Notes: generated from the sequence alone by a model not told the origin. A stretch of DNA of 63,383 bases, filler included, from Nitrospinota bacterium (GCA_030620925.1; 12 parts of 12 records of this genome joined end to end with filler, not necessarily neighbours in it), one strand, 5' to 3'. Positions 7,140 to 37,184 are shown, counted from the whole stretch's first letter. Made by a program: numbers and translations.

Positions 7140-7239
7140 NNNNNNNNNNNNNNNNNNNNNNNNNNNNNNNNNNNNNNNNNNNNTTAATTAATTAANNNNN
7201 NNNNNNNNNNNNNNNNNNNNNNNNNNNNNNNNNNNNNNN
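7140..7239. other. Artificial contig linker; identical linkers at 10559-10658, 16894-16993, 24489-24588, 28754-28853, 38145-38244, 41712-41811, 46109-46208, 50340-50439, 53701-53800, 58406-58505
   Basis: 44 N + TTAATTAATTAA (stops in all six frames) + 44 N; genes are truncated at the linkers. Confidence 0.98.
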
Positions 7240-7830
7240 CTCCACAAAGAAACGGGCCCTGTTCTCGGCGCTGCCCCCGTATTCATCGGTACGCTTGTTG
7301 AACATGGGTGAGATGAACTTGGCCAGGGTGTAGCCGTGAGCGCCGTGAATCTGCACGGCGTCGAAGCCCGCCTCCCTGGCCCTGCGGGCCGCCGCCCCAT
7401 AGGTGACTAAAATCTGCTCCATCTCATCCCTGGTCACCTCCCTGGGCATGGCGTCCACCGGCTCGCCGGGAGAATAAGGGGAAGGGGCGATGGGCTCGTG
7501 GTTGAAGCGGAAGGGGGGAGCGAGCTGCGTGGTTATTTTTGCGCCTGCACTGTGTACGGCATCAGTCAACTTCCTGAAAGCTGAGATGGCGTCATCGTTG
7601 TCTATTATAAGCGGTTTCATGGGAGGCCCCGCGCTCCAACCGGGGTCGGCGAAAGTGGCGCTGGTGTTTATCATTCCCACCCCGCCCTCAGCCAGCTCGC
7701 CGTACATATCGAACAGCAAAGGGTCGGGGCAACCGTTCTCCAGGGCCATGTTTTCCATGGTGGCCGATCGTACGAAACGGTTGCGCAGTTTTATTCCGCA
7801 AAGCTCATAGGGTTCAAAAAGTATGGACAT
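7240..7830 (-). CDS. Old yellow enzyme family NADH:flavin oxidoreductase, 3'-truncated
   Basis: LFEP...LRNRFVRSAT, AGFDAVQIHGAHGY, SPMFNKRTDEYGGSAENRARF. Confidence 0.9.
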
Positions 7831-7893: not shown

Positions 7894-9549
7894 CTAAAAT
7901 GGCGATTCGATGGTCAGCAGTGGATCGTAATCATAGCCGAAAGCGGTGCGCACGGCACCCATGATCTCCCCCTGGGTGGCGTAGGCCCTCACCGCTTCGA
8001 GGATGAGGGGTATGAGGTTCCGGTTATGGTCCCGCCGGGCGGCTTCGTGGATCGTTTCCAGACAGGCTTTGACCTTCTGGTTGTCCCTTTCCCGCCGCAG
8101 CTTATCCAGGGAGTCGGCCACCGACTCCCGCGCCAGGGGGGTGACTTTATGGAACGCCCCGGGTGTCCCTCCCCCATCGTCCTTGGTGAAAGCGTTCTGC
8201 CCCACTACCACCATCTCCCCCGAATCGGTCTCCTTCTGTATTGTCAGGGCGGATTTCTCTATCTCCTTATCCACCCAGCCCTTCTTGATGGCCTCCAGCA
8301 TACCCCCCTGATCTTTTATCTCTTTGAGCAGGGCGCTTATCTCCTCCTCCATGCGGCCGGTGAGTGATTCCATGTAATAGGAGCCTCCCAGGGGGTCCGC
8401 CACACGGGCCACACCCGTCTCGTAAGCCAATACCTGCTGCGTCCGCAGTGCGATGAGCTGAGACTCCTCGGTGGGTATGGCGATGGGCTCATCATACGAG
8501 CAGCAGTGCATGGACTGCGCCCCCGCAAGCACCGCGGCCAGGGCTTCGTAGGACACCCTGATGACGTTGTTCATGGCCTGCTGAGGCACCAGGGAGCACC
8601 CCGCCGTATGCGCGCCGAACCGGAACTGCATCGACTGGGGTTTCCTGGCGCCATACTCTTCCTTCATGAGCCGCGCCCAGACCTTACGGGCCGCCCGCAG
8701 CTTCGCTATCTCCTCGAAGAAGTCTATGTGCGAGGAACAGTAGAAGGTAATCCGGGGGGCGAAATAATCTATGTCCAGCCCCCTCTCCAGCGCTCCCTGA
8801 ACGTAGACCGAGGCTATGGCCTGACCGAAGGCTATCTCCTGCACGGCGTTGATTCCCTGCTCCCTGAGCGCGTAGGTGTCCACGCTCACCGGGTAATAGA
8901 GGGGCATGTGTTGCGCGCAGTATTCTATGCAATCCACCGCCGTTTTCACCGAGAGGTCCAGGGGAACGGAAGGCGAATAGCCGCAATACCGGAACCCCAC
9001 CGGATCGTTCTGCACGGAACCCCTCAATCGGGCGGGGTCCGCACCCTGTTTCTCGGCGGCGGCTACGTATTGGGCCAGATGCACTGGTGCGGCGCAGGTG
9101 TTGCTAACCAGGGAGACGGTGTTCTCGGCGGCGGGTATACCCTCCATCACCATCTCCATGTCTTTAAGCGAGGAGATGGATACGCCCACCACCCCCACCT
9201 CTCTTTCAGCGCGGGGATGGTCGGCGTCTATGCCGAAGGTGGTGGGTACGTCGAAAATGATGAGCAGGCCCGTGGCCCCTTCCGCTGCCTGAAACTTAAG
9301 GCGGCGGTTGGTATCCTGGGGGGTGCCGAAGCCGCAAACCTCGCGGCGGGTCCAGAGTCGCTTTCGGTAAAGGTTAGGGTGTATGCCCCTGGTGAAGGGG
9401 AACTCTCCGGGGTGGTTTATCTCTTCAGAATATTCGATGTCCTTCAGGTCTTCGGGGTTATACGTCTCTTTGAGAGGGAGGCCAGACCATGTCCTGTTCC
9501 CCCTGGCCCCTTCCCGGTAAGCTTTCTGAATATCCCCCCCACTACCCAT
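7894..9549 (-). CDS. B12-dependent acyl-CoA mutase large subunit (divergent methylmalonyl-CoA mutase family) - mutase 1
   Basis: PGEFPFTRGIH, GSVQND, FFEEIAKLRAAR, SYDEP, ALRTQQVLAYETG...DPLGGSYY; no B12-binding domain. Confidence 0.92.
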   Translation of the reverse strand: MGSGGDIQKAYREGARGNRTWSGLPLKETYNPEDLKDIEYSEEINHPGEFPFTRGIHPNLYRKRLWTRREVCGFGTPQDTNRRLKFQAAEGATGLLIIFDVPTTFGIDADHPRAEREVGVVGVSISSLKDMEMVMEGIPAAENTVSLVSNTCAAPVHLAQYVAAAEKQGADPARLRGSVQNDPVGFRYCGYSPSVPLDLSVKTAVDCIEYCAQHMPLYYPVSVDTYALREQGINAVQEIAFGQAIASVYVQGALERGLDIDYFAPRITFYCSSHIDFFEEIAKLRAARKVWARLMKEEYGARKPQSMQFRFGAHTAGCSLVPQQAMNNVIRVSYEALAAVLAGAQSMHCCSYDEPIAIPTEESQLIALRTQQVLAYETGVARVADPLGGSYYMESLTGRMEEEISALLKEIKDQGGMLEAIKKGWVDKEIEKSALTIQKETDSGEMVVVGQNAFTKDDGGGTPGAFHKVTPLARESVADSLDKLRRERDNQKVKACLETIHEAARRDHNRNLIPLILEAVRAYATQGEIMGAVRTAFGYDYDPLLTIESPF

Positions 9550-9587: not shown

Positions 9588-10558
9588 CTAAAACACCAGC
9601 ATCTCCAGGAAAGCATCCATGCGGTTCTTTATCTGCCCTTCAGAATATTCGTTGGGGTCCGTCATGTTGGCCTCGAAGATGAGCACCGGTATGTCCAGCT
9701 CATCCTCCACCAGTTTCATCACGTCGACCCTGTTCATGGACAGGTTCTTGCACCCCCTGTTGGAGTGGCAGATGATGCCGTCCGCGCTGTAATCCCTGGC
9801 CATGTTTGAGTAGTATGTTACCTGGCTCTGAATATCCGCCCCCAGCGGGTTGAAGCAATAATGTTTGGCCACCTCGGTGAGCGCCTCACTCATGTTGGAG
9901 GGTTCGTTCCACTCCAGAAGCCGGTAGCTCTCCTCGTCGTAGCCGCACTGGTACTTTGTCTGCAATCCCCACATGGAGGTATAAGGAGAAATTACCAGCA
10001 CCACCCCCTGCCCCTCCAGGTAGTTCAGAAGGTCCAGGCTGTACCAGAGCGGCACGTTGTCCCACAGTATGCGCGCCTCTTCTTCGGCAACGGCGGCCAC
10101 GCTGCGATTCGCCCTGTCATCAAGCTCGTCCAGCAGACGGTTATAGAAGTCCACGGCGCGCTGTGTGCCTTTCAGGTCCACGGCGGGCACCATTAGGGTT
10201 AGCTGGCTCTTCATGTTGAGCAGGCTGGGCACTCGCTTGCAGTAGTCCAGCACTTTGTCCCACAGTTTCCGCGCCTCGTGGGATAGGATCGTTGCCTCCA
10301 CGAATAGCTCTTCGTTCAGCTTGCGGCCGGTGGCGCTCTCAAGGAAATCCACCAGGCCCTCTATCTGGGCCTGCATGTAATCGATGTGTTGCTGGCGGAC
10401 GCCCCGCTGCAACAAGGGCTGATCGATCACGTAGAAAGGTTTTTCGAAATGACGGCTCAATACCTCCCACCAGCTTATATGCGTGTTGCAGGCTTCCTTG
10501 GAGGATATGATGACGTCCGGCTCAGGCATTTCGCCCAGCGGGCCTTTGTTTATGAGAG
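9588..10558 (-). CDS. 2-hydroxyacyl-CoA dehydratase / benzoyl-CoA reductase B-C family subunit, 5'-truncated
   Basis: PEPD...ACNT, DGIICHSNRGCK, IPVLIFEANMTD...EGQIKNRMDAFLEM (HgdA/B-type C-terminus). Confidence 0.82.
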
Positions 10559-29165: not shown

Positions 29166-29573
29166 CTAATGTTGTTTGCGGACGTTGTCGCGAATATAGC
29201 CAACCATGTCTTTGGTGAGGGAACCCGCTGTAAACACTTCGTCAATACCCAGGTCTTTCATCTCCGGGATGTCCTCCCTGGGAATGACCCCGCCCACCAC
29301 CACCAGGACGTCTTTTATCTCCTTACCCTGGAGGATTTTGGTGACTTCGGGTGCGAAGGTGAGGTGTTCACCGGAGAGGCAACTCAGGCCGATGACGTCT
29401 ACGTCCTCCTCGAGGGCCGCCTGGACAACGTTTTCCGGTGTCTGGTAGAGTCCCAGGTAGATTACTTCCATTCCCGCCTCCCGAAAGAGTGAGGCGACAA
29501 CTTTCGCCCCCCTGTCGTGTCCGTCCAGTCCCAGCTTGGAAATCAGCACTTTTATCTTTTTATCTTCGTTCAT
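29166..29573 (-). CDS. Cobalamin-binding small subunit of acyl-CoA mutase
   Basis: KLGLDGHDRGAKVV (DxHxxG), IGLSCLSG, VGGVIP. Confidence 0.93.
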   Translation of the reverse strand: MNEDKKIKVLISKLGLDGHDRGAKVVASLFREAGMEVIYLGLYQTPENVVQAALEEDVDVIGLSCLSGEHLTFAPEVTKILQGKEIKDVLVVVGGVIPREDIPEMKDLGIDEVFTAGSLTKDMVGYIRDNVRKQH

Positions 29574-29659: not shown

Positions 29660-31321
29660 TTACTTGAAAGGATTTTCTATGACTTTCAGTGGATCGTAGC
29701 TGTAGCCGTAAGCCTCGCGCATGGTGCCCACAATTTCGCCCAGGGTGGCGTAAGCCTTGACGGCGTCAATTATTTCCGGCATAAGGTTGGCTTTTTCGCC
29801 CTGGTCTGCTTTTCTGCTCACCGCCTCAAGGGCGTTTCTGACCTTGGTGTTATCGCGTCGCTCCTTGAGCTCCCTCACTCGTTTGACCTGTATTTCGGTT
29901 GTCTCCGCCGGTATGCGGTGCACTCCGCCGGGGGTCTCCTTTTCCGCTTCAGAGACGAAAGCGTTAACGCCTACGGTGATCTGCTTAGATTCTTCCAGCT
30001 CTTTCTGGCGTTTGAGTGCGGCCTTTTCCATCTCCTTGTCGATCCATTCGGTGCGCATGGCTTCGTACATACCGCCCAACTCTTCTATTTGCGCCAATAT
30101 CTCCTCCGCCTTCTTTTCGATCACCCCGGTCAGTGATTCCACGTAATAGGAACCTCCCAGAGGGTCGGCCACGCGCGCCACGCCCGTCTCATAGGCCAGT
30201 ATCTGCTGGGTGCGCAGCGCCAGGAGCTGGGCTTCCTCGGTGGGGAGGGCTATCGGCTCGTCGTAGGAGCAGCAGTGGAGAGACTGCACTCCGGCCAGGA
30301 CGGCGGCCATCGCCTGGTAGGCGACACGGATGATGTTATTGAGCGGCTGTTGGGGCACCAGTGAGCAGCCGGCGGTGTGCACGGCGAACCTGAACTTGAG
30401 GGACCGGGGGTCCTGTGCCCCATACTTCTCTTTGAGTATCTTGGCCCACAGCTTACGGGCCGCCCTGAGCTTGGCCACCTCCTCGAAAAAATCGACGTGG
30501 GAGGAACAGTAGAAGGCCATGCGAGGTGCGAACTGGTCAATTTTCAGGCCCCGCTCCAGAGCCCCGTCTATGTAGCACATGGCCATGCCCAGCCCGAAGG
30601 CTACCTCCTGGGGAGCGTCGATGCCCTGTTCTCTCAAATCGTACATGTTTACGGTGGTGTTATACCAGTGGGGCATGTTGCGGGCCGTATACTCTATGCT
30701 GTCCACGCCCGTCTTGAGGGCCAGTTTCAAGGGCACGGCGGTCCTGAAGCCGCAGTAGCGGAAGTGCACGGGGTCGTTCTGTATGGTGCCCCTGAGAGTG
30801 GAGGGATCGATTCCTCTTTTCTCAGCCACCACCAGGTACTGGGCGAGAATGACCGGCGTAGAGCAGGAGGTGGTAATGAGGGACATGCTGGTCTTGTCTA
30901 TGGCGATGCCGTCCACGAGGTCTTCCATGTCCTCTAAGGAACAGAAGTTGCACCCGGTGACACCGATTTCGTCGAAAGCCCTCGGGTGGTCGGGGTCTAT
31001 CCCCATATGGCTGGGTATATCCAGGATAACGTTCAGCCCTCCAACCCCCTCCGCCATCTGAAACTTGAGCCTCTTATTGGTGTCGGAGGCGGTGCCGTAG
31101 CCGCAGACCTCGCGCCGGGTCCAATATTTACCCCGGTACATATCGGGATGAATCCCCCTGGTGTAAGGGTATTGTCCGGGGTCGGCTATTTCCTTTTGGT
31201 AATCGATTTGCTCCACGTCTTCCGGCGTATATCTATCAGAGACCGGCAGTCCGGACCATGTCTCCAACCTCTTCGGTTTCTCAAAGTAGGCATCTTCCAT
31301 GCCGCTGTTTTCTTCAGCCAT
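29660..31321 (-). CDS. B12-dependent acyl-CoA mutase large subunit - mutase 2
   Basis: PGQYPYTRGIH, GTIQND, FFEEVAKLRAAR, SYDEP, DPLGGSYY; close paralogue of 7894-9549. Confidence 0.92.
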   Translation of the reverse strand: MAEENSGMEDAYFEKPKRLETWSGLPVSDRYTPEDVEQIDYQKEIADPGQYPYTRGIHPDMYRGKYWTRREVCGYGTASDTNKRLKFQMAEGVGGLNVILDIPSHMGIDPDHPRAFDEIGVTGCNFCSLEDMEDLVDGIAIDKTSMSLITTSCSTPVILAQYLVVAEKRGIDPSTLRGTIQNDPVHFRYCGFRTAVPLKLALKTGVDSIEYTARNMPHWYNTTVNMYDLREQGIDAPQEVAFGLGMAMCYIDGALERGLKIDQFAPRMAFYCSSHVDFFEEVAKLRAARKLWAKILKEKYGAQDPRSLKFRFAVHTAGCSLVPQQPLNNIIRVAYQAMAAVLAGVQSLHCCSYDEPIALPTEEAQLLALRTQQILAYETGVARVADPLGGSYYVESLTGVIEKKAEEILAQIEELGGMYEAMRTEWIDKEMEKAALKRQKELEESKQITVGVNAFVSEAEKETPGGVHRIPAETTEIQVKRVRELKERRDNTKVRNALEAVSRKADQGEKANLMPEIIDAVKAYATLGEIVGTMREAYGYSYDPLKVIENPFK

Positions 31322-32047: not shown

Positions 32048-32470
32048 ATGGTAGACCAGAGTCACATCGGTAAAGTTTTTGACCCCTTTGAGGTAGAAGT
32101 GGAGAAGGGAGCAATAATAAAATTTGCAGATGCCGTGGGAGATCAGAATCCCCTGTACAGTGATCGCAAAGGAGATTTGGAGGCTCCTCCCACGTTCGGA
32201 ACGACCTTCCGCCCCGCTGAAGGTTTCTTCCAGACCTTTACGGACCTGGATATAGACCTCACCAGGGTGCTCCACGGCGAGGAAGAATACGAATATTTAA
32301 AGCCTATTAAGCCCGGCGATACGTTGGTTTGCCAGACCAAGGTGGCGAATGTGTTTGAGAAATCGGGGAAGAGCGGGGGCATGGATTTCGTGGTGCTGGA
32401 GACGGAGTGCAAGAACCCCGCCGGTGAACTGGTGCTCATACAGCGGGGCACCATAGTGGTGAGGAAATAA
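32048..32470 (+). CDS. MaoC-like hot-dog dehydratase, N-terminal type
   Basis: VEKGAIIKFADAVGDQNPLY, APPTF, VLHGEEEYEYLKPIKPGD; GGAGG RBS. Confidence 0.85.
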   Translation: MVDQSHIGKVFDPFEVEVEKGAIIKFADAVGDQNPLYSDRKGDLEAPPTFGTTFRPAEGFFQTFTDLDIDLTRVLHGEEEYEYLKPIKPGDTLVCQTKVANVFEKSGKSGGMDFVVLETECKNPAGELVLIQRGTIVVRK

Positions 32471-32614
32471 CTGACCGCCGTTGTCTGTCAAGCCTCTGTA
32501 GGGTTATTATATTGAAAACGGGCTGTCGCCTTTCGCGTGCCCGTTTTCGTGTATAATAGACTAAAAGACCGGCGTATGACTTCTTAAACCAAAAGTATCG
32601 CAATAGAGGAAGAG

Positions 32615-34003
32615 ATGGGGATAACCGCCGAACTGGTGAACTTCTACCAGGGGTTAAAGTTTACGGGCCTTCCCCCGGAAGCCGCGGATAGAGCCAAATA
32701 CTTTCTGCTCGATTACCTTGGGGTAGCTGCCAGGGGCTCGCTTGAGGAGTCCTGCAAGGTCATGTACGGGACACTGCGGGCCATGCATCCCTCCGATGAC
32801 GGTTCGGTGATAATAGGGCGGAAGGGCCGGCTGCCGGCATACATAGCCGCCCTGGTCAACGGCACCTCAGGCCATAGTATCGAGCTGGACGATGTGAACA
32901 ACAGCGCATCCCTTCACCCCGCAGTGGCCATATTCCCTACCGCGTTAGCCGTGGCCCAGGAGCAGGGCAGCGGGCCGGAAGAATTCATCACCGCCGCGGT
33001 TGTCGGCTACGATGTTGCCGTTAGGCTGGGAATGGCCCTTGATCCCGCTATGCATTACGCTCATGGCTTCCACCCCACAGCCACCTGCGGTACGCTGGGA
33101 GCAGCGGCGACGGCGGCCAAGCTTCTGGGCCTGAATGAGGACCAGACGGCCTCCGCCCTGGGCGTTGCGGGTAGCCAGGCGGCGGGGTCGATGGAGTATT
33201 TGAGTAACGGCGCCTGGACCAAGCGTATGCATCCCGGTTGGGCGGCCCACAGCGGAATTACCGCCGCCTATCTGGCAAAAAACGGCTACGTGGGCCCCGC
33301 CACCATCATCGAAGGCAAATCGGGTTTCCTCCATTCATATTCCGACCATTCCAATCCCGGCGTGGTGCTTGAGGAATTGGGAGAGGTGTTCCACATCACC
33401 CGCACCAGCATCAAACCGCACGCCTGCTGCCGCTATAAACAGGCGGGCATAGACGGCGTGCTTAAAATAGTGGGAGAGAACGACCTCACCCCTGCCGATA
33501 TTAAGAAAATAAGGGTGGGCATTCTGTCCGGGGGGTGGGACATAGTGGTCGACCCGCCGGAACAGAAGCGCAACCCCCGCTCCACCGTTGACGCCCAGTT
33601 CAGCATGCCCTACGGGGCGGCGGTGGCGGTCGCACGACGCAGGGCATTCATAGACGAGTATCAGGTGGAATTATTGTCAGACCCGGTTTTAAAAGAGTTG
33701 ATGGGGAAAGTCGAGTGTTTCAAAGACCCCGATCTTGACAAGGAATACCCCGCCCACTGGCCGTCCAGGGTCGAAGTCGAAACGGTCGAGGGGGCCAAAC
33801 ACAGCGTAAAAGTGGATTTCCCGAAGGGGGACCCGGAGAACCCTCTCTCCTGGGAACAGATAGAAGATAAATTCAGATCACTGGGCTCTTCCGTTTATAG
33901 CGGTGAGCGATTGGAGGAGATTATAAAGACCGTAAGGGGCCTGGAAACGAAGGAGATGGGCGCCCTTTACGGGCTTCTGGAAGCCGATCCGCCCACCTCC
34001 TGA
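32615..34003 (+). CDS. MmgE/PrpD family protein
   Basis: NGTSGHSIELDD, HPAVA, GFHPTA, KRMHPGWAA, KPHACC, AQFSMPY, PKGDPENP. Confidence 0.92.
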   Translation: MGITAELVNFYQGLKFTGLPPEAADRAKYFLLDYLGVAARGSLEESCKVMYGTLRAMHPSDDGSVIIGRKGRLPAYIAALVNGTSGHSIELDDVNNSASLHPAVAIFPTALAVAQEQGSGPEEFITAAVVGYDVAVRLGMALDPAMHYAHGFHPTATCGTLGAAATAAKLLGLNEDQTASALGVAGSQAAGSMEYLSNGAWTKRMHPGWAAHSGITAAYLAKNGYVGPATIIEGKSGFLHSYSDHSNPGVVLEELGEVFHITRTSIKPHACCRYKQAGIDGVLKIVGENDLTPADIKKIRVGILSGGWDIVVDPPEQKRNPRSTVDAQFSMPYGAAVAVARRRAFIDEYQVELLSDPVLKELMGKVECFKDPDLDKEYPAHWPSRVEVETVEGAKHSVKVDFPKGDPENPLSWEQIEDKFRSLGSSVYSGERLEEIIKTVRGLETKEMGALYGLLEADPPTS

Positions 34004-34030
34004 AAGAAGGGCATCGAGGAGATATCCGAC

Positions 34031-35701
34031 ATGTATGAAAAGAAGAAGCTTGAGGAGATAAAAAAGGAGCGTGAGCGCTACGAAAAGACCACCCTGGAAA
34101 AAGTCCTCAGCAAGGTGCCGGAGAAGGACCGTAAGTTCACCAACCTGTCGGGGATAGAAATCAAGCGGCTCTATACCCCGGAGGACGTCAAGAGCAGTGA
34201 TTATCTCGGTGATATCGGCTTCCCCGGTGAGTATCCGTTCACCAGGGGGGTGTTCCCCGGCGGTTTCAGGAGCAGGGAGTGGACCAGGCGGCAGGTGTGC
34301 GGGTTCGGGACGCCGGTGGAGACGAACGAGCGATTGCGCTTCCTGTTCGAAAACGGGCAGACCGGCTTCAGCGTGGTCTTCGATCATCCCACCAACAACA
34401 ACCTGGATAGCGACCATGAGCTTTCCGTGGGTTTCGTGGGGCGCGAGGGTTGCCCCATAGACACCCTCTGGGACATGCAGACGCTGCTGGAGGGGTTGGA
34501 CCAGCGCGAAATATCCGCCAACCTGATCACGGGCTCGCCCTCCCTGTACGCCATGTACCTGGCCGTGGCCGACGAGCGGGAGGTGCCCCGGGATTGCCTG
34601 CGGGGGACACTGCAGAACTTCGCTCTCACCGGCTGGTCCAGCGGCCCCAAGGTGCGGGACAACATGCGATACAGCGTGGACCAGCTGGATTTCGCCGCCC
34701 TCCACCAGCCACTATGGAATCCCCTGAGCATATCCGTGCGAAACGTTCGCGACGGGGGCTGCACCGCCGTGCAGGAAGCGGCTTTCGGGCTTGCCGGGGG
34801 CATAGCCTATATCGAGCACATGCTGAAGCGCGGCCACGATATAGACAAGTTCGCCTCGCGCATCACATTCTTCCTTAATGCGCATAACGACCTCTTTGAG
34901 GAAGTAGCCAAGTACAGGGCCATGCGCCGCATGTGGGCTAGAATTCTTCGGGAACACTTCGGGGCAAAGGACCCCCGGTCGTGGATGATGCGATTCCACG
35001 TGCAGACTTCCGGCGATTCGCTCACTGCCCAGCAGCCCCTCAACAATATAGTGCGCACCAGCCTCCAGGCCCTGGCCGCCGTGCTGGGAGGGGCGCAGTC
35101 CATGCACGTGAACTCTGTGGACGAGGCCTTCGCCATACCCACCGAGGACGCCGCCGTGCTGAGCCTTCGCACCCAGCAGATAATCCTTTATGAGTCCGGC
35201 GTGGCCAACACCGTGGACCCCCTGGGCGGCTCCTATTTCGTGGAGCATCTCACCGACCGCATTGAAGAAGAGGTCAACCAGCTCATAGAGAAGATAGACG
35301 GCATGGGCGGCATGGTTGAAGCCTGCGCCTCGGGGTGGGTGGCCCGCCAGACACAGGATTCGGCGTGGGAATACCAGAAGCAGGTGGAGAGGAATGAGAG
35401 GATAGTGGTGGGGGTTAACGAGTTCCAGAGCGAGAAGGAGAGCATGCCCATAGAGGTTTTCGAGGTGGACCCCGTGCTGGAAAAGAAGCAGATTGAGCGC
35501 CTCAAAAAAGTTCTCAAAGAAAGGGATGAAGCGAAGGCGGAGAAAGCCAAGAAAGATCTGCTCGACGTATGCCGCGGCAAGGAGAACACCATGCCCGCCA
35601 CGATCGAGGCGGTTAAAGCCTACGTTTCAGTCGGCGAGATCGGGGGCATATATGATGAAGCCTTAGGGGAAGATCTTTCAAACGCCTGCGCCAGCCAGTA
35701 G
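34031..35701 (+). CDS. B12-dependent acyl-CoA mutase large subunit - mutase 3
   Basis: PGEYPFTRG, EEVAKYRAMRRMW, RFHVQTSG, QQPLNNIVR, NSVDEA, DPLGGSYF. Confidence 0.92.
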   Translation: MYEKKKLEEIKKERERYEKTTLEKVLSKVPEKDRKFTNLSGIEIKRLYTPEDVKSSDYLGDIGFPGEYPFTRGVFPGGFRSREWTRRQVCGFGTPVETNERLRFLFENGQTGFSVVFDHPTNNNLDSDHELSVGFVGREGCPIDTLWDMQTLLEGLDQREISANLITGSPSLYAMYLAVADEREVPRDCLRGTLQNFALTGWSSGPKVRDNMRYSVDQLDFAALHQPLWNPLSISVRNVRDGGCTAVQEAAFGLAGGIAYIEHMLKRGHDIDKFASRITFFLNAHNDLFEEVAKYRAMRRMWARILREHFGAKDPRSWMMRFHVQTSGDSLTAQQPLNNIVRTSLQALAAVLGGAQSMHVNSVDEAFAIPTEDAAVLSLRTQQIILYESGVANTVDPLGGSYFVEHLTDRIEEEVNQLIEKIDGMGGMVEACASGWVARQTQDSAWEYQKQVERNERIVVGVNEFQSEKESMPIEVFEVDPVLEKKQIERLKKVLKERDEAKAEKAKKDLLDVCRGKENTMPATIEAVKAYVSVGEIGGIYDEALGEDLSNACASQ

Positions 35702-35751
35702 AGACTCTTTGGGTGTTTTGATATGACCGAGAGATAAGGATAACTTAAGAT

Positions 35752-36165
35752 ATGATAGCTGACAGAAGGATAAGGGTGCTTTTAGCCAAACCGGGGTTGG
35801 ACGCCCAGCACGACAGAGGCTATTTCATTGTGGGCAGGGCCTTGAGAGAAGCGGGCATGGAGGTGATAATGGCGGGTAAATATCTTACCCCCGCCCAGAT
35901 AGCCCAGGCCTCCATACAGGAGGACGTGGATTTCATCGGCCTCAGCCTCCTCTCAGGCACGCCGCTGGCGATAGTGACGCCCCTCCTGGAACGACTCAAG
36001 GAAATGGCGGGAGAAAACATTCCCATCCTGCTGGGGGGCATCATCCCCAAAAGGGAGGTTCCGGAGCTTCAAAAGCTGGACATTCTGGGTCTGTTCGGCC
36101 CGGGAACGCCGACCAATAAAATAGTAGAGTTTATCCGACAGAAAGCCGGGGCGGCCAAAGAATAA
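35752..36165 (+). CDS. Cobalamin-binding small subunit with altered His loop
   Basis: RVLLAKPGLDAQHDRG, IGLSLLSG, LGGIIP, FGPGTP. Confidence 0.88.
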   Translation: MIADRRIRVLLAKPGLDAQHDRGYFIVGRALREAGMEVIMAGKYLTPAQIAQASIQEDVDFIGLSLLSGTPLAIVTPLLERLKEMAGENIPILLGGIIPKREVPELQKLDILGLFGPGTPTNKIVEFIRQKAGAAKE

Positions 36166-36242
36166 CCAGAGTCTTTTTTGGTTTTGAAATATGTTTTGGG
36201 TATTTGCATGCCTGCGCAGTTACTTCAAGGCGAGCCGGTATA

Positions 36243-37184
36243 ATGGGTGAGAACAGGATAGCTGTCATAGGAATGGGGCCTATAGGCTCTCTGATGGCGG
36301 CGCTGCTGCTGGCAGAAGGTGAAGACGTGATACTGGTGGGGAGGCCCAACGCTCACCTCCAGGCCGTAAGGGAGCATGGGCTGACGCTGCGGGGCGTCTT
36401 TGAGGCCGGTGTACGGCCTCAGAAGATATGCGATTCGGTGTCCGAGCTGAGAGAACACGACGTAGACCTGGTCTTCGTGACGGTGAAGACGCCCGACCTG
36501 TTGTCCCTGATGGATGAGCTTCAGCCTCTGCACCGGCCGGGAATCAGGTACGTCAGCGCGCAGAACGGGTTGGATACCGAGAAAGTCATTGCCGACCGGA
36601 TGGGCCCGGAATCGGCTTTCAGGATGGTCCTCAACATGGGTTCCTCCATAGTAGAGGAGGGGGTAATTGAAACCACCTTTTTCAACCGCCCCCATCAGTT
36701 GGGGTGTTTGACCGAGGAGAACCGCGAAGAGGGCCAGCGGATAGCCCGCATGCTTACCGATGCGGGGTTGGAGACCGTCTTCACCGATGATATAGACATG
36801 CTGATCTGGAAGAAGTCCATCATGAAATCCACCCTGGCCCCTATATGCGCCCTGGCGGATACCACGCTCAAGGGGAGCATAGACCACCCCATGACCAAAC
36901 AGGTGGCGGAGGGGGCGCTGCGGGAGGGAATCGAGGTGGCGCTGGCCGTGGGGATAGAACTCCCTCCCGACTTTTTCGAGCAGTGTATGGATTTTTTCAA
37001 CAGGGCGGGCTATCATAAAGACTCCATGCGTGTGGACATAGAGAACAGAAAACCAACCGAAATAGATTATCTGAACATTAAAATCATGGACTACGCCCGG
37101 CAGAAGAACATCCCCACCCCTTATCTCCTTACTACTGCCAGCCTGGTGAAAGCGCTGGAGTCGCAATACGCGAAGGATAAGTAG
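36243..37184 (+). CDS. Ketopantoate reductase (PanE/ApbA) family oxidoreductase
   Basis: IAVIGMGPIG, VTVK, AQNGL, IWKK, DSMRVDIENRKPTEIDYLN. Confidence 0.85.
   Translation: MGENRIAVIGMGPIGSLMAALLLAEGEDVILVGRPNAHLQAVREHGLTLRGVFEAGVRPQKICDSVSELREHDVDLVFVTVKTPDLLSLMDELQPLHRPGIRYVSAQNGLDTEKVIADRMGPESAFRMVLNMGSSIVEEGVIETTFFNRPHQLGCLTEENREEGQRIARMLTDAGLETVFTDDIDMLIWKKSIMKSTLAPICALADTTLKGSIDHPMTKQVAEGALREGIEVALAVGIELPPDFFEQCMDFFNRAGYHKDSMRVDIENRKPTEIDYLNIKIMDYARQKNIPTPYLLTTASLVKALESQYAKDK

Follow-up and report, generated by a model that had tools for sequence, protein, structure and literature searches.

A conserved and uncharacterised subfamily of putative adenosylcobalamin-dependent acyl-CoA mutases with an altered active site in a Nitrospinota genome

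The B12-dependent acyl-CoA mutases are a known enzyme family, of which two genes of a Nitrospinota genome, mutase 1 (M1) and mutase 2 (M2), represent, as judged from alignment, a real, conserved and uncharacterised subfamily. Their products are very probably active acyl-CoA mutases. In our preferred reading, to which we give a probability of roughly 60%, they would be radical mutases that remove the β-oxidation-blocking branch of bulky acyl-CoAs, the substrate being a prediction, and they probably help to degrade branched acids without oxygen.

The window, i.e., the whole stretch of DNA analysed (63,383 nucleotides), is made of 12 contigs joined end to end by spacers of 44 N, 12 A/T bases and again 44 N (e.g., at 7140-7239 and ten similar places). 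Since the spacers mark contig joins, reading frames that run across them are artefacts, and since M1 and M2 lie on separate contigs they are unlinked (Table 1). The small subunit that had been suggested as a partner adjoins M2, but none accompanies M1 on its contig of 3.3 kb, and the DxHxxG cobalt-ligand motif of this small subunit is intact. The HGD-D subunit upstream of M1 remained under the BzdO and HadB cut-offs in a profile search and is probably cut, because its Pfam match begins at model position 55, near the contig end at 10558. The order HGD-D, M1, flavoenzyme is also kept in G001, the only other genome of the phylum in the collection, where the same HGD-D C-terminal tail precedes the M1 orthologue and the flavin oxidoreductase gene that follows it is 82% identical to that of the window. 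The window also carries a third mutase, whose Arg243 could be another relocated carboxylate clamp. In the gene run around it, the small subunit has a one-residue insertion ahead of the cobalt-ligand His, and the gene order of the run is found again in G001 at 73-83% identity.

Table 1. Features of the window and active-site residues in methylmalonyl-CoA mutase (MCM) numbering.
Feature	Position	Strand	Remarks
M1, large subunit	7894..9549	-	Intact ORF, 551 aa; acyl-CoA mutase family
M1, residues			Val89, Gly207, Asp241, Ala244, His330, Cys366, Glu370 (sequence alignment)
M2, large subunit	29660..31321	-	Intact ORF, 553 aa
M2, residues			Val89, Gly207, Asn241, Asp244, His330, Cys366, Glu370 (sequence alignment)
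HGD-D family subunit, benzoyl-CoA reductase / 2-hydroxyacyl-CoA dehydratase type, upstream of M1	9588..10529	-	PF06050
Old-yellow-enzyme flavin oxidoreductase, downstream of M1	7240..7830	-	PF00724; truncated at contig end
B12-binding small subunit, 86 bp downstream of M2	29166..29573	-	135 aa; PF02310; TIGR00640 above cut-off
Third mutase	34031-35701	+	Val89, Gly207, Arg243, Asn244, Asp247
Gene run around third mutase	32048-37184	+	MaoC-type dehydratase half, PrpD/MmgE-family gene, small subunit, PanE-like reductase

Residues were numbered by HMMER alignment to chains of Propionibacterium shermanii MCM, including the mutant structures 5req (Y89F) and 1e1c (H244A). The numbering is anchored by these two structures, as Val71 of M1 aligns with the residue exchanged in Y89F and Ala227 with that exchanged in H244A; Gly190, Tyr226, Glu230 and Glu354 of M1 are the equivalents of Arg207, Tyr243, Glu247 and Glu370. 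The same columns were obtained when named reference mutases were aligned with MAFFT. The first-pass annotation had proposed that both enzymes carry Val89 and Gly207, lack His244 and keep Tyr243 and Glu370; HMMER and MAFFT agree on this, and proper alignment to MCM restored Tyr89, Arg207 or His244 in neither mutase. The four motifs it had quoted are present in both genes and both frames are intact. Gln197 and Glu247 are retained as well, and the MAFFT alignment revealed additional altered positions (Ile116, Arg204, Asn/Asp241, Tyr287, Gly/Ala328, His330) together with Cys334 and Cys365-Cys366. An alignment artefact is ruled out by the concordance of HMMER against PDB chains, profile search and MAFFT. 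The functional roles of Tyr89, Arg207, His244, Gln330, Asn366, Glu370 and the HcmA Asp are generally known; His244 in particular is central to carbonyl activation and oxygen protection in characterised mutases, and it is kept in all the characterised references aligned. Two other descriptions hold in part. The signature had been called Cys-rich, and Cys indeed makes up 1.6% of residues compared with 0.9% in 64 His244-bearing mutases, but the excess is modest and Cys334 occurs in 27 of those 64. The two genes had been called a pair, and they share the signature at 57% identity, but they are unlinked and only two of four signature-bearing paralogues (54-64% identical) in the genome.

Both proteins score well above the family thresholds (PF01642, 582 and 585 bits; TIGR00641, 550 and 552 bits against a cut-off of 304), and the AlphaFold model of M1 (pLDDT 89.7) has TM-scores of 0.90 to HcmA and 0.88 to MCM. 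The barrel domain above cut-off and the matching fold place them in the adenosylcobalamin acyl-CoA mutase family, as do the B12-binding subunit with DxHxxG and the MeaB available in the genome, and the retained Tyr243, Glu247, Glu370 and CoA-binding Arg/Ser/Thr positions. The residues that distinguish the known members are different. The MCM signature Tyr89, Arg207 and His244 is replaced by Val, Gly and Ala/Asp, and Phe89, Gln207 and His244, which we take to be the signature of isobutyryl-CoA mutase (IcmA/IcmF), is absent. Likewise, the (S)-type HcmA signature (Ile89, Asp116, Gln207, His244) gives way to Val/Leu, Ile, Gly and Asp/Ala, and that of pivalyl-CoA mutase (Leu89, Asn207, His244) is missing. 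For the ethylmalonyl-CoA mutase (ECM)/MatB/IaaG type, compared by description and presumably defined in ECM by a carboxylate clamp (Tyr89 and Arg207) and by small residues at 328 and 366, the small residues are found and the clamp is absent. The ESM Atlas offered only generic family names.

Conservation was counted in the best 120 homologues listed (53-80% identity, and M1 itself); those with a name come from deltaproteobacterial, Desulfobacteraceae, Dehalococcoidia and similar genome bins, and their source names, where given, read methylmalonyl-CoA mutase. Among these 120 homologues, Arg87, Glu88, Tyr243, Glu247, Arg283, Tyr287, His330, Ser362, Cys366 and Glu370 are invariant (120/120 each), Gly207 is found in 119, Asn241 in 118, Asp244 in 117, Gln197 in 115 and Arg204 in 112, and position 89 is Val in 97 and Leu in 23; Ile116 is found in 119/119. 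Because its residues are near-invariant, the signature is not due to chance. Asp244 is the norm of the subfamily and Ala244 of M1 the exception, paired with Asp241 in M1 and its G001 orthologue as if the acid had moved, a single evolutionary event; an Asp at either 244 or 241 is present in 196 of 197 tabulated sequences, a set that contains duplicates. In a library clustered at 50% identity, one representative (872 bits) bears the signature and the next scores 699 bits. Only 69 of 150 distant representatives have His244, and 142 have Glu370; as read from these alignments, the loss of His244 is widespread among unstudied mutases. Position 366 is mixed in the same 150 (Asn 35, Cys 24, Ala 23, Ser 21, Thr 15) and therefore tolerates any small residue. 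For the three orthologue pairs tested between the two genomes, dN/dS was 0.13, 0.08 and 0.07, indicating purifying selection, and a pseudogene or drift is ruled out by these values, the intact frames and residue invariance. An offshoot of the subfamily with Gly/Ala89, Arg117, Ala197 and Tyr207 was observed in loci L255, L258, L277, L278 and L280, always beside one same second mutase type.

Trees were midpoint-rooted and included references from named plasmid records, namely HcmA of Methylibium and Xanthobacter, Xaut_5043 of Xanthobacter autotrophicus, which we take to be a pivalyl-CoA mutase, rhizobial MCM and split MCM forms; ECM, IcmF, RcmA, IaaG, MatB and any characterised isobutyryl-CoA mutase are absent from them. 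With FastTree (109 sequences), 43 signature carriers formed one group (support 0.937), itself part of a larger set of sequences lacking His244 (0.993), in which no reference falls. This larger split was kept by fast IQ-TREE with 50 of the 109 sequences (SH-aLRT 99.2); the narrow signature group was not recovered there, one divergent sequence nesting beside M1. The HcmA branch is separate from the subfamily in both trees, the F89/Q207-type sequences form a separate branch in FastTree, and M1 and M2 do not nest with Xaut_5043. The expectation that the mutases would not nest in a characterised clade was borne out in both trees for the MCM, HcmA, pivalyl- and isobutyryl-type references tested.

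The subfamily is present in other lineages. In the class of the genome behind locus L007 (a record labelled Desulfobacteraceae), 36/209 genomes pass E 1e-225 and the signature was read in 35/38 loci; in an even sample of its phylum, 20/401 genomes pass E 1e-240. Nine of these 20 (G311, G344, G376, G406, G491, G518, G565, G588 and G611; 1.9-3.1 Mb) have at least three matches each, with 20-41 first-look mutase candidates, which are not copy numbers (the genome of the window, G000, gave 31). These nine, of another phylum than G000, show a second expansion similar to that of G000. A metagenome scan was unspecific (signature whole or partial in 4/80 loci), and a scan of genome contigs gave one member in seven loci.

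For 77 members, located on 76 loci (many contigs being short and related genomes not independent, with neighbours labelled by similarity to Pfam-annotated representatives), we found within 6 kb a small subunit for 42, an acyl-CoA dehydrogenase for 30, another mutase for 22, TetR for 20, MeaB and enoyl-CoA hydratase for 18 each, an AMP-type ligase for 15, an SCP2-type thiolase for 13, an SDR for 11, a ChsH2-like partner for nine, a flavoenzyme for six and an HpaB-family gene for two. Any acyl-CoA enzyme was found for 53/77 and none was labelled for 24/77; epimerase and biotin-carboxylase probes gave no match within 6 kb of the 77. A Leu89 subgroup lies in a recurrent β-oxidation cassette (dehydrogenase-SDR-mutase-hydratase-dehydrogenase-thiolase; e.g., L245, L248 and L256), and a Val89 subgroup stands at the head of arrays that also contain MeaB and as many as two further mutases. 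Eight arrays (L100, L102, L107, L108, L112, L114, L124, L129) consist of the subfamily gene, a small subunit, MeaB and a Leu89/Gln207/His244 mutase, followed in three of them by a third mutase with Leu89 and without His244; such arrays possibly perform sequential rearrangements. A glycyl-radical enzyme adjoins the subfamily mutase in metagenome loci L166 (6640-10052) and L168 (1269-3683), the former with a radical-SAM activase. A Shinella plasmid operon (L283, 9086-15967) encodes an aminotransferase, a small subunit, MeaB, a mutase, a hydratase and a ligase; its HcmA-like mutase (Val89/Asp116/Gln207/His244) may act on an amino-acyl-CoA.

G000 (2.5 Mb, 89% complete, 3.55% contamination) has 26 PF01642 matches, 15 of them in full-length frames and the rest including partial genes, with one gene split by an apparent frameshift and one gene across two overlapping contigs, and we estimate its large-subunit genes at about 21-24. 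Their pockets vary widely, with MCM-type, F89/Q207-type (isobutyryl-type) and pivalyl-like enzymes. The F89/Q207-type gene, L031 (G000:C197) 707-2451, is split into two overlapping frames, by either a true frameshift or a fault of the assembly. The genome has seven small subunits, hence about three large subunits to one small, and one MeaB (G000:C209), besides 35 matches to acyl-CoA dehydrogenase and, over cut-off, 23 to HGD-D. G001 follows a similar pattern, with 21 mutase matches against 24 for G000 in the same search, and for 13/19 of the G000 sequences placed in the tree the sister comes from G001; these figures and the contamination value make a binning artefact unlikely as the source of the expansion. 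The two genomes (2.5-3.1 Mb) show about 21-24 large-subunit mutase genes, 35-38 acyl-CoA dehydrogenase matches and at least 23 HGD-D subunits each, and the lineage looks like an anaerobic acyl-CoA specialist. An alkylsuccinyl-CoA mutase of fumarate-addition pathways was rejected on account of the absence of the Tyr/Arg clamp and of any PFL-like gene (0/2 genomes, each about 89% complete), and sulfate reduction was rejected for want of a DsrA over cut-off in either genome (0/2).

M1 and M2 would be catalytic large subunits of two-component adenosylcobalamin acyl-CoA mutases, in which a separate small subunit would bind the cofactor and the single MeaB service it. The genes themselves are present and the pairing of large with small subunits is presumed; with seven small subunits for at least 21 large ones, the small ones would have to be shared. 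The CoA arm would thread the TIM barrel through the retained Arg/Lys82, Thr85, Arg87, Ser164, Arg283, Arg326, Gln361 and Ser362, which we assume to be its contacts. Co-C homolysis would give an adenosyl radical, handled by the conserved Glu370, Tyr243 and Glu247, which would abstract a hydrogen from the methyl beside a branched α-carbon, and the thioester would shift 1,2. The carbonyl polarisation exerted by His244 in MCM may be taken over by Asp244 (Asp241 in M1) and/or His330. Val/Leu89 and Gly207 would clear the space in which MCM holds the carboxylate, and the substituent would accordingly be large: a plausible substrate is an α-branched or quaternary acid whose remainder is cyclic, aromatic or terpenoid and which would be turned into a β-oxidisable form. 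The paralogues probably take different substrates.

The first-pass annotation had described active radical mutases with an enlarged pocket for a bulky, probably non-dicarboxylic acyl-CoA. Activity agrees with the kept cofactor and CoA contacts, purifying selection and the B12-subunit, MeaB and β-oxidation neighbours, although the substrate class stays conjectural. The pocket would be opened by Val/Leu89 and Gly207, but Ile116, Tyr287 and His330 are bulkier than their MCM counterparts. The suggestion of a non-dicarboxylic substrate is weakened by the conserved Arg204, one helical turn away from the lost Arg207; Arg204 could still bind a carboxylate.

The same chemistry might indeed be exerted on polar substrates, Arg204, as a relocated clamp, gripping a longer branched dicarboxyl-CoA by its distal carboxylate or the pocket binding hydroxy-acyl-CoAs destined for a radical dehydratase (e.g., 3-hydroxyisobutyryl- or hydroxypivalyl-CoA turned into a 4-hydroxyacyl-CoA). 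We hold this unlikely. In its favour, Arg204 is present in 112/120 homologues listed against Tyr/Phe in 64/64 His244-bearing mutases, the near-invariant Asn241, Asp244, Tyr287 and His330 are polar, an HGD-D gene precedes M1 in both genomes, and the HpaB-family genes beside 2/77 members are presumably 4-hydroxybutyryl-CoA dehydratase-like. Yet Arg204 is replaced in 8/120 homologues listed, including paralogue C363, and may pair instead with Glu88 or Asp/Glu199 (no clear co-occurrence of Glu88 and Arg204 was seen by eye in 150 representatives); moreover, no epimerase or biotin carboxylase was found near the 77 members and dehydratase neighbours are rare. A bolder, separate and doubtful reading is that the lineage debranches recalcitrant cyclic, terpenoid or aromatic acids anaerobically with more than 20 mutases sharing few cofactor subunits, the subfamily giving undescribed rearrangements through Asp244, His330 and Cys366 in place of His244, Gln330 and Asn366 (as acid catalyst, thiyl-radical or metal site), a catalytic device that is not known from any characterised mutase.

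It is improbable that the subfamily catalyses an already known reaction of small substrates by a divergent route (RcmAB-type 2-hydroxyisobutyryl-, pivalyl- or isobutyryl-CoA mutase), its oxygen protection having been relaxed in anaerobes. Among solved relatives HcmA scores best (423 bits), distant relatives of the 2-hydroxyisobutyrate-CoA (hcl) ligase (25-29% identity) lie on five loci, and RcmAB, as one paper relates, is no more than a distant relative of HcmAB, a like enzyme occurring in a deltaproteobacterium (PMC7176365). However, Ile replaces the HcmA Asp116 in 119/119 and Gly207 replaces Gln/Asn, F89/Q207 and pivalyl-like paralogues are already encoded elsewhere in the genome, and four paralogues of 54-64% identity would then duplicate one another; no named cultured organism is found among the 120 homologues listed, most of them without name, and the best of 426 plasmid records is 44% identical. 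Least probable is that the proteins do not shift thioesters at all, being non-catalytic partner subunits or performing other radical chemistry (a thiyl relay or metal) at the His330/Cys366/Asp244 site. The invariance of His330 and Cys366 in the 120 homologues listed, the roughly 3 to 1 excess of large subunits and the other mutase near 22/77 members could be read in this way, but the cofactor- and CoA-contact positions are invariant, 42/77 members have a small subunit nearby, position 366 is varied in the 150 distant representatives and the inactive MCM β chain scores 90 bits against 323. A Cys cluster or metal site was set aside, to be kept as a low-probability rival, as most conserved Cys would point away from the pocket, judging by strand register, or are common elsewhere.

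Large substrates, too, can be rearranged by members of the family (PMC8360864, PMC5719088): phenylsuccinyl- and benzylmalonyl-CoA are interconverted by IaaGH (PMC8360864), and MatB/ActD were proposed for hexylmalonyl-CoA (PMC5719088). IcmF rearranges isobutyryl- and pivalyl-CoA (PMC10481361). HcmAB has been engineered, and engineering for the rearrangement of larger acyl-CoAs is described as limited by few, slow enzymes (PMC11599936); a passage on mutase genes of marine Dehalococcoidia does not subdivide them (PMC7506110). The available portions of PMC6759758, PMC6129605, PMC9850924 and PMC13188929 contain nothing on the signature. Our literature search, from which the primary structural mutase papers were out of reach, found no paper on it. 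The 2015 paper on the IcmF structure reportedly lists uncharacterised mutase groups.

If the debranching reading is correct, the subfamily suggests a way in which uncultured anaerobes may get past methyl and quaternary branches, which block β-oxidation, and it offers candidate scaffolds for rearranging larger acyl-CoAs. The conserved Asp at 244 in a rebuilt pocket makes the role of this residue directly testable, and the label methylmalonyl-CoA mutase carried by the homologues misleads metabolic reconstructions. Scale is an added point, a small genome giving more than 20 genes to mutases with differing pockets. Nevertheless, unstudied mutase groups are many and the subfamily is but one of them, as His244 is retained in less than half of the distant representatives.

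Compared with known systems, the subfamily shares with MCM (P. shermanii 1req, Sinorhizobium meliloti ScpA, split bacterial and archaeal forms) the barrel, the CoA contacts, Tyr243/Glu247/Glu370 and 38-44% identity, but M1 and M2 miss Tyr89, Arg207 and His244 altogether, no epimerase was found beside any of the 77 members, and M1 and M2 score 445-455 bits against the NCBIfam MCM equivalog cut-off of 876, which is set for a fused protein. ECM, IaaGH and MatBQ/ActD, compared by description only, differ by their dicarboxylic CoA ester substrates; ECM keeps Tyr89/Arg207, and the small residues at 328/366 of the subfamily presumably resemble its space-making changes. Isobutyryl-CoA mutase (IcmF, PDB 4xc6, and the F89/Q207 split enzymes) has the family fold (TM about 0.8) and a monocarboxylic chemistry that serves as model for the proposed reaction, but the subfamily is devoid of Phe89, Gln207, His244 and the G-protein fusion, and IcmF reaches 192 bits. 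Pivalyl-CoA mutase Xaut_5043 is similar in its aliphatic residue 89 (Leu in 23/120 members listed), the lack of Arg207 and its MeaB and TetR neighbours; it differs in Asn207, Gln243, His244, Gln247 and Asp366, is only 35-36% identical to the subfamily, and has as its sister the genome paralogue C398, not M1 or M2. The closest solved relative is HcmAB of Aquincola tertiaricarbonis (PDB 4r3u; 423 bits, about 40% identity, TM 0.90), which has the same split of large and small subunits, an aliphatic residue 89 and Gln197, Tyr243, Glu247 and Glu370, whereas the Asp116, Gln207, His244, Gln330 and Asn366 of HcmA-type references are Ile, Gly, Asp/Ala, His and Cys in the subfamily.
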